Shown here: positions 12,326 to 18,300 of the stretch, one piece after another
Numbering within the stretch: the first letter of the stretch is position 1
Layout of the letters: every line of letters starts with the position of its first letter
NCBI GenBank assembly: GCA_000165345.1
Contig: CM000431.1
Coordinates: 224,001-288,000, forward strand
DNA: 64,000 nt
Direction: 5' to 3'
Position numbers: made by a program

Positions 12326-15300
12326 CTACTACTACTACTACTACTACTACAAGTACAACTTCCACAACAACAGAAAGACCATGGTATGAAATAGAATTGG
12401 ATGAATGTCCTTTAGAATTAAATAAACCATGTAGAGGAATTAATGGAAAATTAGATAAACCGTTTAATCATGGTAATTTATTATGGATTAATGGAACTTT
12501 AGGAAAAGATATTAATGGGAGATTATTATTAGATGATACAAATTTGATGGGATATGATATAATGAATGATAATAAAAAAATCATGACTTTATTATTAAAT
12601 GAAACATTTATTGGAGTTTATGATTTAACAAAAGATCAAGAATATTATTCATATTATACAAATGAAAGTTTAGCATATAATGGTATGGACTTTAAGATAG
12701 GAATAGGATGGAGTAAATTAGGATTATTTATTTTGAATGAATATTCAAGTAGTTTAATAGAAATTCAAACACATTCAGATTATAAATTTAATAAAGTATT
12801 ATTAAGAGGACCAACAATGGATAAATATGTGAATTATATATTATTAGATAATTTCTTATATCCAAATGGAATATTATATTTAGGATATGATACATGTACA
12901 TTTAATGGAGAATGTAATGTAAAATCTTTAGAATGTAGTTCTCAAGTATTAGAAGGATTATGTTTAAAAAAGTTACCAGGAATTACTTGGAAAATGGAGA
13001 CTATTTTAGCACAAACAAATGTAAATAATGGAACTTGGGGATTCGATTATTCTATTAATGGTTTAATAAATTTATATACATTAAATAATGGAATAGAGGA
13101 TGTATTGGTAATTTATTTCTTTAATAATAGAGTAGCTTTACAAGATTTAATAAATTCAAATTCTTGTTCTGGTCCTTATCCTGAGAATTCTCAAGTCAAT
13201 GTTGGTGATTTAATCAAATGGTCAATAGGAATAGATTCTTTAATGAATTTATATTTAAATATATTAGATGATAATGTAACAGGAAAGAATTATACTGTTT
13301 GTTATATAAAGAATTTGAATCAATTTGGTGGTGGATTTAAATATTTATCTCCATTAGGTTATAGACCAAATTATTCAAGATTTATTCAAGAAATATCACC
13401 AAAATTCCAAGATGGTGGTTATGAATCAACATCTAAACCTGATAATGGTTATTATTTCCCAGAAAAAGATGTAAATACTGGACAATATAATCCTGATGAT
13501 AAATATGGTGAAAATAGTTATCCATTTTTCCCACCAGGAGTTCAACCAGCTCCAATTGATGGAGATGAGAATAATACACCTCCAAATTATCATTATAATA
13601 CAACAACTGGCCAATTTGAGAAGAATGAAGATCATCCAAATCCTGATGAAATTAATCCATTCCAACCAAATCATATTGTTGATGGTATTTCAGAATGTGA
13701 TCTTTACTTATTCTCAACTTGTAATGCAACATCTACTAAATTTATGCCAGATGGTACTATATTTAAACAAGGTTGGACATTATTTGTAATGATTAATACA
13801 GGAGTTCCAGATTATGATCCAAATAATGTAAATAATAATTATAATTATAGATATGAATTTATTAGTAGTACTAATAGTAATACTGGTGGTGGTACATTAT
13901 CAGATAAATTAATATTATCATTGGAATATAATAATGAAACAGTTACATTTAGGAATGAAATAACAGGTGAGGAAGATGTTGTAGGTTCTCCACAATGTGG
14001 TCCATACTGTTCAACTTATCCAAAAGGTTATTTTGCTTTTTGGTTAACTTATGATTCAAAATATAATTACTTTATTATATCAGTCAATAGTAATAATGAT
14101 TATTTAACATCAATTTCAGCTGATAATACTGATATGATTTTTAATAAGATTATTCCAAGAGGAAATAACGTTAATAATAGTTATAATATTTGGCATTTAA
14201 ATAGTCAGAATAGGTTGCCTGTTTCAATAGCTACTACTACTACTACCACAACGACTACTACAACTACGACGACGACTACTACGACAACAACGACAACTAC
14301 TACCACTACTACTACCACTACAACAACGACTACTACTACTACTACTACCACAACTAGTACTACTACCACTACTACAACTACTACCAGCACTACTACGACG
14401 ACGACTACTACGACAACAACGACAACTACTACCACTACGACTACTACAACTACCACCACAACAACTACTACGACAACTACTACTACCACAACCACTACTA
14501 CGACAACGACAACAACCACCACAACAACAACAACTACTACTACTACCACTACAACTACAACAACTACAACAACTACAACCACTACGACTACCACTACTAC
14601 AACAACTACTACTACCACCACTACTACGACAACGACAACAACCACCACTACAACAACAACTACTACTACAACCACCACTACTACAACAACAACTACTACC
14701 ACTACTACTACAACAACAACTACTACTACTACTACTACTACGACAACAACAACTACCACTACTACCACAACAACAACAACAACAACTACTACTACCACTA
14801 CTACTACTACAACCACCACAACAACTACTACGACAACAACAACTACCACCACTACTACAACCACAACCACTACGACTACTACAACCACCACAACTACTAC
14901 AACCACTACTACTACTACCACAACAACAACTACTACTACTACAACTACGACGACGACTACCACTACAACTACTACAACTACTACAACTACGACAACGACA
15001 ACAACCACCACAACAACAACTACTACTACTACTACAACCACCACTACTACGACGACGACTACTACGACAACAACCACCACTACAACAACAACTACTACGA
15101 CAACAACAACTACCACAACAACTACCACTACCACCACAACTACTACCACTACTACAACTACAACCACCACAACTACTACAACTACCACTACTACCACCAC
15201 TACTACAACCACAACCACTACGACTACTACAACTACTACAACCACTACCACTACTACAACCACTACCACTACTACTACCACTACCACTACCACTACCACC

Positions 15301-18300
15301 ACAACTACTACCAATCCTCCATGGGACCAGATAGTTCAAGATAATTGTGAATTAGAACCAAATAATCAACCATGTAAAGGTTTTAATTCAACTATCCCAT
15401 CAATAGTCAATCAAGGAAATCTCTTCTGGATTGATTCTAATATTGCTTATTATTCTCCTAAAAATTATAATATCCGAAAATTATACTTTACAGAAAATAA
15501 TAATCCAATTTCAAATGATGGTTATTATTGGATGGGATATAACTTCATGAAAGATAACGATCCTGTATTTACTCTTTTATTCAATGAAACTTATCTAACT
15601 ATTAAAGATTGGAAAGGGAAACAAGAATATTATTCACCTTATACTAATGAAAAACTTGCTTATAATAATATGAACTTTACTATAGGAATTGGATTAAGTA
15701 GATTAGGACTCTATTTAATGAATTCCAAATTACAAAGTTTAATACAAATTCAACCTCAATATGATTATTCATTTAATCATGTCAAACAATTATTATATGA
15801 TAATCAAGTTATTACTAATTATTTATTACAAGATGGTTTCCTTTATCCAAATACTCTTTTATATGAAGGATATGAAAAATGTTCATTATATAATAATTGT
15901 CTATCAAATAAATTAGAATGTAATTCTCAAGTTCTAACTGGTATTTGTTCAACTTTATCTCCTGGATTAAATTTAGAATTTGAAACAGAAATTAAATCAA
16001 CAAATCTTAATAATGGTACTTGGGGTGAAATATTTAAACAATCTGATTTATTAAATACTTATATTATTAGTTCCAATAATGAAGATCAATATATTATTTA
16101 TATATATTCCAATAGAATTGCTATTCAAGATTTAAATAATTATATTAGTTGTTCTGGTCCATATCCTAATGGTAATTTAATTCATATTGGATCTAAACTT
16201 ATTTGGAAAATTGGTTTTGATTCATATTATTCAATATATTTAAATGTATATGATCAAATAAATCATGAATATTATTCAATATGTCAACTTAAACCTGTTA
16301 TTCATCATATTACAAGTCTAGATCTTATTAATACTGCTATTACTACTACTACTAATAATAATAATAATAATAACAATAATAATAAAAATAATACAAGTAA
16401 TACCTTTGGAATAGATTCTATTGATTATATTTATACAAGAGGATATAATCCATCAAATACTAAATTTATTCAATATATTAATAATTTCCCAAGAGGTGGT
16501 TATAAATCTTCATCATCTTCAAATTCAAATCCAAATCTAGTCACTTCTTATTATTATCCTTATTTTGATAAATCTATCAATGAATTTAATCCATTATATA
16601 ATTATGGTAAAAATTATGCATTCTATCCACCTGGTATTAAACCTGCTCCTATTATTGGAAATTATCATACAACTCCTACAAATTATCATTATAATACAAC
16701 AACTGGCCAATTTGAGAAGAATGAAGATCATCCAAATCCTGATGAAATTAATCCATTCCAACCAAATCATATTGTTGATGGTATTTCAGAATGTGATCTT
16801 TATTTATTCTCAACTTGTAATGCAACTTCTGCAAAAATTATGCCAGAAGATACTATATTTAAACAAGATTGGACATTATTTGTAATAATTAGTACTGGTA
16901 TTCCTGAATATGATAATAATTCTAATAATATTGATCTTTATAATTATAAATATGACTTTGTTAATTTTGATAAAGATACTGGAAATGAAGAAATTATATT
17001 GTCTTTATTACTTAGAAATGAAACTGTTACTTTAAAAAATCATATTACTAATATAGAAAAAACTGTTGGTTCTCCACAATGTGGTCCTTATTGTTCAACT
17101 TATCCAAAAGGTTACTTTGCTTTCTGGTTAACTTATGATGAAGATAATGATCTTTATGAAATCTCTATTAACTCTAATACAGAAATTTTACTTAAATTAC
17201 CAGCTTCAAAACAAAAATTCAATAAAATAATTTCTAGATCCAGCTCTAATACTAATACCAACCCTAATCCAAATCCCAATAATACTACTTTCAATGTTTG
17301 GTATTTAACAAATGTTAAACAAACTCCTAAATCTATCTCTACTACTACTACTACCACAACAACTCCACCATGGGATAAAGTTGAAAAAGAAGTTTGTGAT
17401 CTTTCAGAAATATTTATGCCATGTCAAGGATATAATGCAACTATTGATCCATATATTAATCTTGGTGATTTAATTTCTATGAAATTTATTATTGAAAAAG
17501 AATGTAATTGTATTAATAAAATTAATCATCTTGGTAATAATTATTGGTTAGGATTTGATTTCAATCATAATGATGATAAAATCTTATCAATCTTCTTAAA
17601 TGAAAGCTTTATATTAATGTATGATTGGAAAAATCATCAAGAATATATATCTCCATTTACAAATGAATCACTTTCTTATGATCATATGGATCTTGAAATA
17701 TTAATAGGTTGGAGCCGACTTGGATTATTCTTAATGGATAATAATCATAATGGATTAATACATATACAAAATATACCAGATAATAAAATTAATAAAATTA
17801 AACAACATTCTAATGAACAAAAAACACTTATAAGATTTGAATTAATTAATAAACAATTCTTATATCCTAATGAAATTTTATATCAAGGTTATCATACTTG
17901 TTCATTCTATAATGATTGTTCTACTGAAATCATTTCTTGTTCAAGTCAAGCACTTATTGATACATGTAATAAACCACATCCTGGTATGAATTGGATTATT
18001 GATACTGATATTTCAGAAACTAATGTTAATAATGGTACTTGGGGTTCAAAACTTGAATTCCCAACTTTAATTAATTTATTCAAAGTCAATAATTTAACTG
18101 ATGATATTTATACTATATATATATTTAATAATAGAATTTCTATTCAAGATGAACATAATAAGATCTCTTGTGATGGTTATTATCCAAATTTCAAAAAATT
18201 AAATATTAATGGTGATCATTTAACTTGGTCACTTGGAATTGATCATTCATATTTACTTTATCTTAATATTCATGATATAAATAATGGAAAGAATTATACT

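Follow-up and report, generated by a model that had tools for sequence, protein, structure and literature searches.

The annotated threonine repeat of cgd3_720, a giant secreted mucin-like protein of Cryptosporidium parvum: composition, turnover and a probable role as a central spacer

The window analysed here, a stretch of 64,000 nucleotides, opens inside a giant forward-strand ORF. The next ORF codes for an α/β hydrolase, in agreement with the annotation of cgd3_730, and 61974-63590 holds an ORF with 100% identity to CpCDPK1 (PDB 9d8s/3igo; 3dfa is named 'cgd3_920'). The giant ORF lies upstream of both, and the identity of the nearby ORF to C. parvum CDPK1 (cgd3_920) therefore identifies it as cgd3_720. 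An N-terminal C. hominis sequence, XP_666597, extends over the first 284 aa encoded in the window (279/284 identical), and the combination of the two gives an inferred full length of 11,696 aa, with ~1,978 N-terminal residues, signal peptide included, upstream of the window. The part of cgd3_720 within the window contains 13 full Cys-rich modules of ~620 aa, seven before and six after a long poly-Thr tract, flanked at either end by module sequence that is partial or divergent. The features considered below are as follows.

1-29157, + strand: C-terminal 9,718 codons of cgd3_720; ORF open at the window start, stop at 29155-29157
6463-6537, + strand: 25-residue Thr linker; C. hominis and C. parvum have different lengths here owing to indels (12 nt and 3 nt)
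12256-12372, + strand: next-longest Thr/Ser linker, 39 residues, nearly all ACT and ACA
12373-14232, + strand: Cys-rich module (~620 aa) directly 5' of the tract, with three predicted β-sandwich domains and a Pro-rich segment
14233-15312, + strand: poly-Thr tract, residues ~6723-7082 of the full protein
14356-14358 (AGT) and 14386-14388 (AGC), + strand: sole non-Thr codons of the tract, both Ser
14389-15312, + strand: longest uninterrupted Thr run, 308 residues, equal to the annotated '308 aa long' Thr repeat
14263-14309, + strand: first copy of the duplicated block, the same 15 codons as in the second
14392-14438, + strand: duplicated block, copy 2, 129 nt 3' of copy 1
14491-14541, + strand: 17-codon block, 16/17 identity with 14617-14667
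14842-14883 and its partner 15190-15231, + strand: second-longest exact duplicate in self-alignment of the tract, 14 codons
15313-17337, + strand: module directly 3' of the tract, 675 aa, with a poly-Asn insertion
14205-15314 and 14224-15339, - strand: two overlapping ORFs opposite the tract

In the one assembly analysed, the tract consists of 360 in-frame codons, 358 for Thr and 2 for Ser (ACT 160, ACA 100, ACC 65, ACG 33, AGT 1, AGC 1). An earlier note on this DNA had counted 359 ACN codons (357 Thr and 2 Ser) with an end at 15309; its uninterrupted run stands, but the count is 360 and the end lies at 15312. Each of the two Ser codons is one second-position change away from ACY. The GC content of the tract is 41-43%, with a GC skew of -0.8 to -0.9, and most of the flanking sequence has 20-29% GC. 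Across its 1080 nt the upstream and downstream modules stay in one frame. An intron or a gene boundary at this position was considered and rejected, because the frame is open, the number of nucleotides is a multiple of three and homologous modules stand on both sides.

The tract is the already-annotated Thr repeat of cgd3_720, a giant secreted mucin-like protein, and hence a known feature. The reference annotation, as quoted in PMC3305300 (Table 4), describes a 'pronounced Thr repeat' that is '308 aa long', and the gene neighbours, the 308-residue pure-Thr run and the total length of about 11,700 aa all agree with it; the N-terminal fragment from C. hominis has a signal-peptide-like segment, whose hydropathy over residues 7-25 is 2.22. 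The annotation counts the longest pure-Thr run alone, whereas the complete Thr/Ser run has 360 residues, so that '308 aa' does not denote a difference in length. The T2T assembly preprint does not mention cgd3_720. The tract itself, present in the annotation and quoted in the literature, is therefore nothing new; the new details are the codon shift, the scrambling in C. hominis, the short runs in gastric species, the β-sandwich modules and the female expression.

The internal organisation of the tract differs from the duplication of blocks of about 130 nt that had been proposed. The 41-mer on which that proposal was built does occur twice, with exact copies only at 14269-14309 and 14398-14438 (0 expected by chance) and within the two copies of the duplicated block. 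However, what the copies have in common is just 15 codons (about 47 nt), set 129 nt apart, and outside this block the two 135-nt stretches match solely at the invariant A and C positions. TRF, which had been suggested as a check for higher-order units, returned period 3 alone, with 79% matches to a CTA unit, and codon-offset autocorrelation over offsets 2-180 gave no significant value (maximum z 2.97 vs. a null 95th percentile of 3.5). Neither result supports ~130-nt units in minisatellite-like tandem. Short duplicates of 10-17 codons, dispersed over the tract, are on the other hand significantly above chance: nine exact runs of at least 9 codons were found vs. 1.5-3.1 expected, and the sum of the top-5 self-alignment scores was 67 vs. 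a null 95th percentile of 47-54, a value reached in 0/200 simulations (three null models, 200 simulations under each). The word ACT ACG ACA ACG ACA ACA ACC, related to the 17-codon block, appears again at 14986. An apparent 'family' of 80 copies of a 300-nt repeat at 72-80% identity was discarded as a low-complexity artefact. The statement that the tract is not a pure trinucleotide microsatellite is borne out by the 79% match to CTA and by a longest same-codon run of 7. The tract is thus no near-pure repetition of one DNA unit and has no VNTR organisation with a defined unit of the metazoan-mucin kind; the instability relative to flanks that is expected of a coding micro- or minisatellite is seen between C. 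parvum and C. hominis.

At the orthologous site, an ACN tract is present in two independent C. hominis assemblies, whose contigs break or start inside it. The 8 kb flanking the tract are 98.6% identical between the two species, with one 3-nt indel, whereas third positions of the last 72 tract codons match in 32/72 cases, which is near chance, yet all 72 C. hominis codons are ACN (0/72 non-Thr). The tract DNA changes far faster than its flanks while staying pure Thr, and the proposed selection at the protein (Thr) level is upheld by this comparison. The remaining genuine interspecies indels found in cgd3_720 fall in homopolymeric amino-acid runs, and in the longer ones only. The orthologs of C. 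muris and C. andersoni have 3,518-3,523 aa and Thr/Ser runs of just 5-7 residues; therefore, a very long tract is not essential for the ancestral function. A word-indexed protein search with the tract flanks found only 3 family members, and an exhaustive profile search of 1.84 billion representatives found only 10, all from Cryptosporidium, none of which extends over the sequence 5' of the tract in a second species. In the public annotations of C. hominis and C. canis, cgd3_720 is badly fragmented because assemblers stop at the tract. A short-read indel hot spot among 101 C. parvum isolates takes in cgd3_720; this indel density, which is at the resolution of the gene, only hints at within-species length variation of the tract.

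Codon usage separates the tract from the rest of the gene. The codons ACC and ACG together make up 27% of the tract, 4.5% of the other linkers and 7% of the non-linker Thr codons of cgd3_720 (p = 4e-9 and 5e-18 for the excess over linkers and non-linker Thr, respectively). The share is still 24% with duplicated blocks masked and reaches 37% in the C. hominis fragment, so that the excess is common to both species. The entropy is 1.80 bits per codon, compared to 1.33 for gene-typical usage. Of the claim that third positions are 'deliberately mixed', the broader codon set is confirmed, but the order is that of random mixing, since shuffling of the tract's own codon frequencies gives a longest same-codon run of 6.9, against the 7 observed. 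Among dicodons, ACG-ACG occurs at 2.65x expectation, and ACC-ACG and ACG-ACC are absent. The 13 other inter-module linkers have 5-39 Thr/Ser residues, close to the 6-45 given before, with the limits shifted.

An alignment of the modules shows 12 invariant Cys. For the AF2 model of a module (pLDDT 73), Foldseek against the PDB returned galectin-8, nematode and fungal galectins, neurexin LNS and laminin LG domains with probability 1.0 and E-values of 2e-10 to 1e-5, all of the β-sandwich jelly-roll fold. According to these models, each ~620-aa module is composed of three predicted concanavalin-A-like (galectin/laminin-G type) β-sandwich domains. The best fold matches (galectin-8, neurexin-1α and laminin LG1-5) are likewise strings of ConA-like β-sandwiches with linkers; the sequence identity of the modules to tandem-repeat galectins and laminin-G/LNS proteins is just ~10%, and a different arrangement of the several domains keeps the TM-scores low. 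A Pfam search with two modules gave no family at E <= 0.01, Gal-bind_lectin and Laminin_G included. The C-terminal 386 aa of cgd3_720 were modelled with pLDDT 50, and Foldseek gave no match for them at E <= 0.001, results that speak neither for nor against a SEA-like domain there.

The window part of cgd3_720 contains 143 N-glycosylation sequons and 181 Cys, and no transmembrane helix or GPI-like tail was detected in it (maximum 19-residue hydropathy 1.29). The latter result does not support a stalk that would project one half of the protein from an anchor; 'central spacer' is the more fitting term for the tract, since the protein is secreted and has a multi-domain arm on either side of it. 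Its 358 Thr and 2 Ser form a domain of mucin composition, and entry into the secretory pathway is indicated by the ortholog's signal peptide, the Cys and the sequons. In the time course given in PMC3305300, cgd3_720 was not expressed at 2-24 h and stood at 93% at 48 h. In sorted females the transcript is about 40-fold higher than in asexual stages (log2FC 5.41). The protein is absent from the supplements of an oocyst proteomics paper, as far as these are accessible (PMC12548878). Giant glycosylated proteins are hard to detect in proteomics, which bears on that absence. For C. parvum, five candidate GalNAc transferases and O-glycans of a single sugar have been described (PMC9713705). In Gp20, HexNAc nearly saturates the Thr runs, and Gp40 is also densely modified, while a 12-Thr peptide of GP900 bore only three HexNAc; the authors infer that such Thr-rich regions are rigid, extended tethers (PMC5549699). 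By analogy, O-GalNAc on tract threonines is plausible. Given the three HexNAc per 12 Thr of the GP900 peptide, the earlier figure of 360 O-glycosylated Thr is an upper bound, and occupancy could be as sparse as on that peptide.

Probably, the tract is an O-GalNAc-modified extended spacer of cgd3_720 that evolves by slippage under selection for threonine. In this mechanism, polypeptide GalNAc transferases in the Golgi would put single O-GalNAc residues on many tract threonines, and the sugars would stiffen and hydrate the chain into an extended, protease-resistant rod. Mucin-domain rods measure ~0.25 nm per residue, which for the tract means up to ~90 nm. Such a rod would serve as a spacer or hinge between an N-terminal arm of ~6,700 aa and a C-terminal arm of ~4,600 aa. 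The whole protein is probably a fibrillar or matrix component secreted by the female gamete into the forming oocyst, with the wall, the glycocalyx or internal tethers as candidate sites; a wall location is inferred from female-stage expression alone. At the DNA level, the tract would grow, shrink and reshuffle via replication slippage or unequal exchange of blocks of 10-17 codons, and purifying selection would purge non-Thr codons.

The closest comparison within the same organism is GP900 (cgd7_4020), a micronemal mucin-like protein with Thr arrays at aa 304-640 (~337 residues) and 797-908. It shares with cgd3_720 the signal peptide, a long Thr array and a short-read indel hot spot, carries O-HexNAc on a Thr-run peptide, and has been proposed to play an extended or tethering/lubricating role. 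However, GP900 has about 1,900 aa and a transmembrane domain, and is made by sporozoites and merozoites but absent from sexual stages, whereas cgd3_720 has about 11,700 aa and no TM in its window part, is expressed in females, and has its tract embedded among lectin-fold modules. MUC2, MUC5AC, MUC16 and other metazoan mucins likewise have long Ser/Thr-rich O-GalNAc central domains with Cys-rich globular flanks, variable length and difficult short-read assembly. Their domains are Pro/Thr/Ser-rich VNTRs with a defined unit and extended glycans, and are flanked by VWD/CysD/SEA domains; the cgd3_720 tract consists almost entirely of Thr and lacks any repeat unit longer than 3 nt, its flanks are ConA-like β-sandwiches by prediction, and C. 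parvum adds mainly single sugars. In the stage-specific, mucin-like cyst wall glycoprotein CST1 of Toxoplasma gondii, according to PMC5225312, a ppGalNAc-T-glycosylated mucin domain gives structural rigidity; no sequence relationship between CST1 and cgd3_720 was found.

Could the tract be a functionally neutral, run-away expansion of an ordinary short Thr linker, its length and sequence having no specific role? The 5-7-residue runs of the gastric species, the quick reshuffling between C. parvum and C. hominis, the rise of indels with linker length, and the 13 other linkers, which join modules equally with 5-39 residues, would all fit such an expansion. It appears unlikely, as non-Thr codons number just 2/360 in C. 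parvum and 0/72 in C. hominis despite fully mixed third positions, a combination that points to purifying selection or constant homogenisation. Moreover, the tract is retained at one site in both species, GP900 independently retains a Thr array of similar size, and the codon usage is unlike that of every other cgd3_720 linker, so the tract is not simply an enlarged linker copy. Far less probable still is an artefact of assembly, in which low-complexity sequence was collapsed, expanded or mis-joined so that length or internal order is wrong. Two C. hominis short-read assemblies do break exactly at the tract, and the C. hominis and C. canis models are fragmented; against this, there is no exact internal repeat above about 47 nt, and reads of several hundred bases therefore place uniquely. 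The length is a multiple of three with both gene halves in frame, the 308-residue run and ~11,700-aa total fit the published annotation exactly, and the C. hominis tract sits at the identical site.

Alongside the spacer reading, it is a doubtful but slightly better placed idea that the unusual codon mix is itself selected, either because greater sequence complexity curbs slippage or because 360 consecutive decodings are shared among all tRNA-Thr species, and did not arise as a side effect of mutation or gene conversion. The ACC and ACG share (27% vs. 4.5% in linkers and 7% in non-linker Thr), its persistence after masking (24%) and in C. hominis (37%), and the entropy of 1.80 vs. 1.33 bits are in its favour. 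Identical composition would also result from GC-biased conversion if the repeat is prone to recombination, or if founder motifs with much ACG and ACC were amplified; the codon order is no more dispersed than random (7 vs. 6.9), and the strong dicodon structure (ACG-ACG 2.65x; ACC-ACG and ACG-ACC never) suggests motif history. The most novel proposal, to which we give little credence, is that the tract and the enlarged module array (~11,700 aa, compared to ~3,500 aa in gastric species) are together an adaptation of the C. parvum/C. hominis lineage, with selected codons. If it were true, the ~90-nm glycosylated rod would set a physical dimension of a fibrillar lattice that the female secretes, made of ~50 lectin-fold domains and located in the oocyst wall or glycocalyx, and the atypical mix of GC-ending codons would be selected to preserve both the genetic stability of a homopolymer-coding tract of 1 kb and its translation.

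Several side results could be of use in Cryptosporidium research. The largest C. parvum protein is an array of predicted lectin-fold modules found only in Cryptosporidium, and it is strongly upregulated in female gametes. Since the tract evolves fast, strain typing by long reads could make use of it, and its shifted codon usage offers a small, testable case of a genome maintaining a 1-kb homopolymer-coding sequence. As a minor observation, the two overlapping reverse-strand ORFs were dismissed as genes, because they are the mirror-image low complexity of the tract (Ser/Gly/Cys/Arg).

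The poly-Thr coding tract extends from 14233 to 15312 and consists of 360 in-frame codons without interruption (ACT 160, ACA 100, ACC 65, ACG 33, AGT 1, AGC 1), which encode 358 Thr and 2 Ser. It is enclosed by a single ORF, open from window base 1 and ending with a stop at 29157. The core observation of the earlier note, an unbroken poly-Thr coding tract, was correct, except that the run described there (359 codons) ended at 15309, one codon short. The longest pure-Thr run, starting past the second Ser, has exactly 308 residues (14389-15312), and the remaining Thr/Ser runs of the giant ORF have 5-39. 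The GC content of the tract is 41-43%, compared to 20-29% in most of the flanking sequence, with a GC skew of -0.8 to -0.9, and G is nearly absent from the coding strand (35 G in 1,080 nt). Two long opposite-strand ORFs over the tract were rejected as genes, since they simply mirror the repeat as low-complexity Ser/Gly/Cys/Arg sequence.

The giant gene is cgd3_720. This identification follows from its neighbours, as the ORF at 61974-63590 shows 100% identity to C. parvum calcium-dependent protein kinase 1 (CDPK1), cgd3_920 (PDB 9d8s, 3igo, 3dfa), and the ORF next after the giant gene encodes an α/β hydrolase, matching the cgd3_730 annotation. The neighbouring features in the window are:

30389-31648, α/β hydrolase
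37918-39036, Ulp1/C48 SUMO-type protease
50806-52119, minus strand, SWIB/MDM2-domain protein
54955-55026, tRNA-Glu(TTC)
61974-63590, CDPK1, 100% identity to cgd3_920

Pfam gave no match for several ORFs of 350-990 aa, namely 31929-32984 (minus), 40787-42397, and 43695-46655 (minus). The window ORF overlaps an N-terminal C. hominis ortholog fragment with 279/284 residues identical, and joining the two gave a full length of 11,696 aa. This length and the 308-residue run agree with the reference genome annotation of cgd3_720, and thus the tract is already on record there; no difference in tract length was seen between the window and that record. Given this annotation, and with GP900, another mucin-like glycoprotein of C. 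parvum, as a close precedent, novelty is low. What is new are modest details: a predicted lectin-like module fold, a genus-restricted distribution, shifted codon usage, and assembly breaks in C. hominis.

The internal structure of the tract differs from the duplication of blocks of about 130 nt that was proposed previously. The 41-mer on which that proposal was based does occur in exactly two copies (14269-14309 and 14398-14438); however, the block common to both sites comprises 15 codons (~47 nt), and outside it both 135-nt stretches match at fixed A and C positions only. TRF, named in the earlier note as a check, found period 3 only (79% matches), so without a 130-nt unit, and codon-offset autocorrelation of the tract gave nothing significant past adjacent codons (maximum z 2.97 vs. 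null 95th percentile 3.5). The tract does contain an excess of short duplicates (10-17 codons) that are dispersed, with 42 to 261 codons of offset between copies. Exact runs of at least 9 codons number 9, where 1.5-3.1 are expected, and the top five local self-alignment scores sum to 67 (null 95th percentile 47-54), a value reached in 0 of 200 simulations with shuffled, first-order, and second-order models. One example of the recurring words is ACT-ACG-ACG-ACG-ACT-ACT-ACG-ACA-ACA, with three occurrences. The excess of short dispersed duplicates and the lack of a higher period therefore show that the tract bears traces of small block duplications rather than the structure of a tandem minisatellite built on a 130-nt unit.

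Codon usage within the tract is shifted. ACC and ACG account for 27% of its Thr codons. Their share is 4.5% among the other 19 linkers (p = 4e-9), 7% for Thr outside the linkers of cgd3_720 (p = 5e-18), and 12% for the remaining genes of the window. It is still 24% when only the first copy of each duplicated block is counted, and it is 37% in the C. hominis tract fragment. Codon order is no more dispersed than random (longest same-codon run 7 vs. 6.9 expected), and there is strong dicodon structure, with ACG-ACG at 2.65x expectation and both ACC-ACG and ACG-ACC at 0 vs. ~6 expected each. Selection for sequence complexity or tRNA balance could account for this codon mix, and so could biased gene conversion or founder-motif history.

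In TU502_2012 and UKH1, assemblies of C. hominis made independently, contigs start within an ACN tract, keep 72 and 48 of its codons, respectively, identical across the overlap, and continue 3' into the same unique sequence as the window from 15313 onward. In the 8 kb after the tract, C. hominis and C. parvum are 98.6% identical, and the sole indel, of 3 nt, falls in a poly-Asn run. Third positions agree at only 32/72 across the final 72 codons of the tract, near chance, and 72/72 C. hominis codons are ACN, which supports the protein-level selection for Thr suggested in the earlier note. A comparison of a further 7.6 kb of the gene gave just two genuine indels, of 12 nt and 3 nt, both in the 25-residue Thr linker, and linkers of up to 12 residues are unchanged. 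This pattern fits length-dependent slippage or unequal exchange, acting together with purifying selection that keeps threonine. It also explains why the gene comes out in pieces in short-read assemblies and their gene models. An indel hot spot on chromosome 3, from a short-read population study of 101 C. parvum genomes, takes in cgd3_720, at a resolution coarser than the tract. Public assemblies of C. hominis and C. canis carry the ortholog in pieces, as five or more proteins labelled 'partial' or 'hypothetical' (C. hominis contigs L001, L002, and L003; fragments P0001, P0003, P0006, P0008, and P0013). Contig ends fall at the giant tract, at least one gene model (P0006) omits the Thr linkers, and the ortholog in these assemblies is effectively mis-annotated.

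Thirteen full modules of ~620 aa, spanning 844-26883 (e.g., 12373-14232), were found in the window. They share 40-54% pairwise identity and 12 invariant cysteines, and each closes with a Thr linker, after which comes a Pro-Trp motif; a Pfam search of the modules matched no family. The AlphaFold model of the module preceding the tract (pLDDT 73) contains three β-sandwich domains, plus a Pro-rich stretch of ~100 residues modelled at low confidence. Foldseek against the PDB matched it with probability 1.0 to tandem galectins, neurexin LNS, laminin LG, and fungal galectins (E 2e-10 to 1e-5, ~10% identity). Each module is predicted to comprise a ~100-aa Pro-rich segment and three concanavalin-A-like (galectin/laminin-G type) β-sandwich domains, which would give roughly 40-50 lectin-fold domains in one protein. 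When the module profile was scored against 1.84 billion representative proteins, only 10 matched, all with E < 1e-30 and all from Cryptosporidium (C. hominis, C. canis, C. bovis, C. andersoni, and C. muris). In two gastric species, C. andersoni (3,518 aa) and C. muris (3,523 aa), the complete ortholog contains few modules, and its Thr/Ser runs are 5-7 residues long. The large array and the giant tract therefore occur in only part of the genus, and the array grew about threefold in the lineage of C. parvum and C. hominis.

The tract was previously regarded as a stalk. It is better described as a central spacer in a secreted, unanchored protein: a signal-peptide-like segment is present at the N-terminus of the ortholog, and no transmembrane segment was found in the window part of cgd3_720 (maximum 19-residue hydropathy 1.29), which carries 143 N-glycosylation sequons, 181 Cys, and an acidic C-terminus. 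Mucin domains measure ~0.25 nm per residue when extended, and at this value the spacer could be up to ~90 nm long. In culture, cgd3_720 expression was not detectable at 2-24 h, and 93% of the signal was at 48 h (PMC3305300). In sorted parasites, females reached a mean log2 CPM of 9.2 in vitro and 9.3 in vivo, against 3.8 for asexual stages (log2 fold change 5.41, females vs. asexual stages). Oocyst-wall components are made and stored by females, with mucins in a late wave of secreted products. Thr runs of C. parvum Gp20 carry nearly saturating O-HexNAc, and the Thr array of GP900 (aa 304-640) belongs to regions that the authors of that work regard as rigid, extended tethers, although one 12-Thr GP900 peptide had only three HexNAc (PMC5549699). 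C. parvum has five candidate GalNAc transferases, and the sugars it attaches are mainly single ones (PMC9713705). From female-stage expression, Gp20/GP900 modification, and these transferases, we infer that the tract is probably an O-GalNAc-modified extended spacer, placed mid-protein in a secreted, female-made array of putative lectin folds. Proteomic or imaging evidence for the protein was not found in the literature searched. Its probable place is in the wall of the oocyst, in the glycocalyx, or in an internal matrix.

The unique C-terminal ~386 aa (27997-29154) share 32-33% identity with C. muris and C. andersoni. Their low-confidence model (pLDDT 50) has two β-α-β-β-α units followed by an acidic tail, and a fold search with it gave no significant match. 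The module after the tract contains a poly-Asn insertion (NNNNNNNNNNKNN) at 16330-16402, encoded by an AAT/TAA-type repeat, and here C. parvum and C. hominis are one codon apart. The twelfth module has an extra insertion in its first β-sandwich domain (window ~23190-23290, ORF residues ~7693-7730) with its own short Thr run (STTTTTTTTTITTNTITNSKR...), so this mucin-like insert lies within a domain and not between modules.
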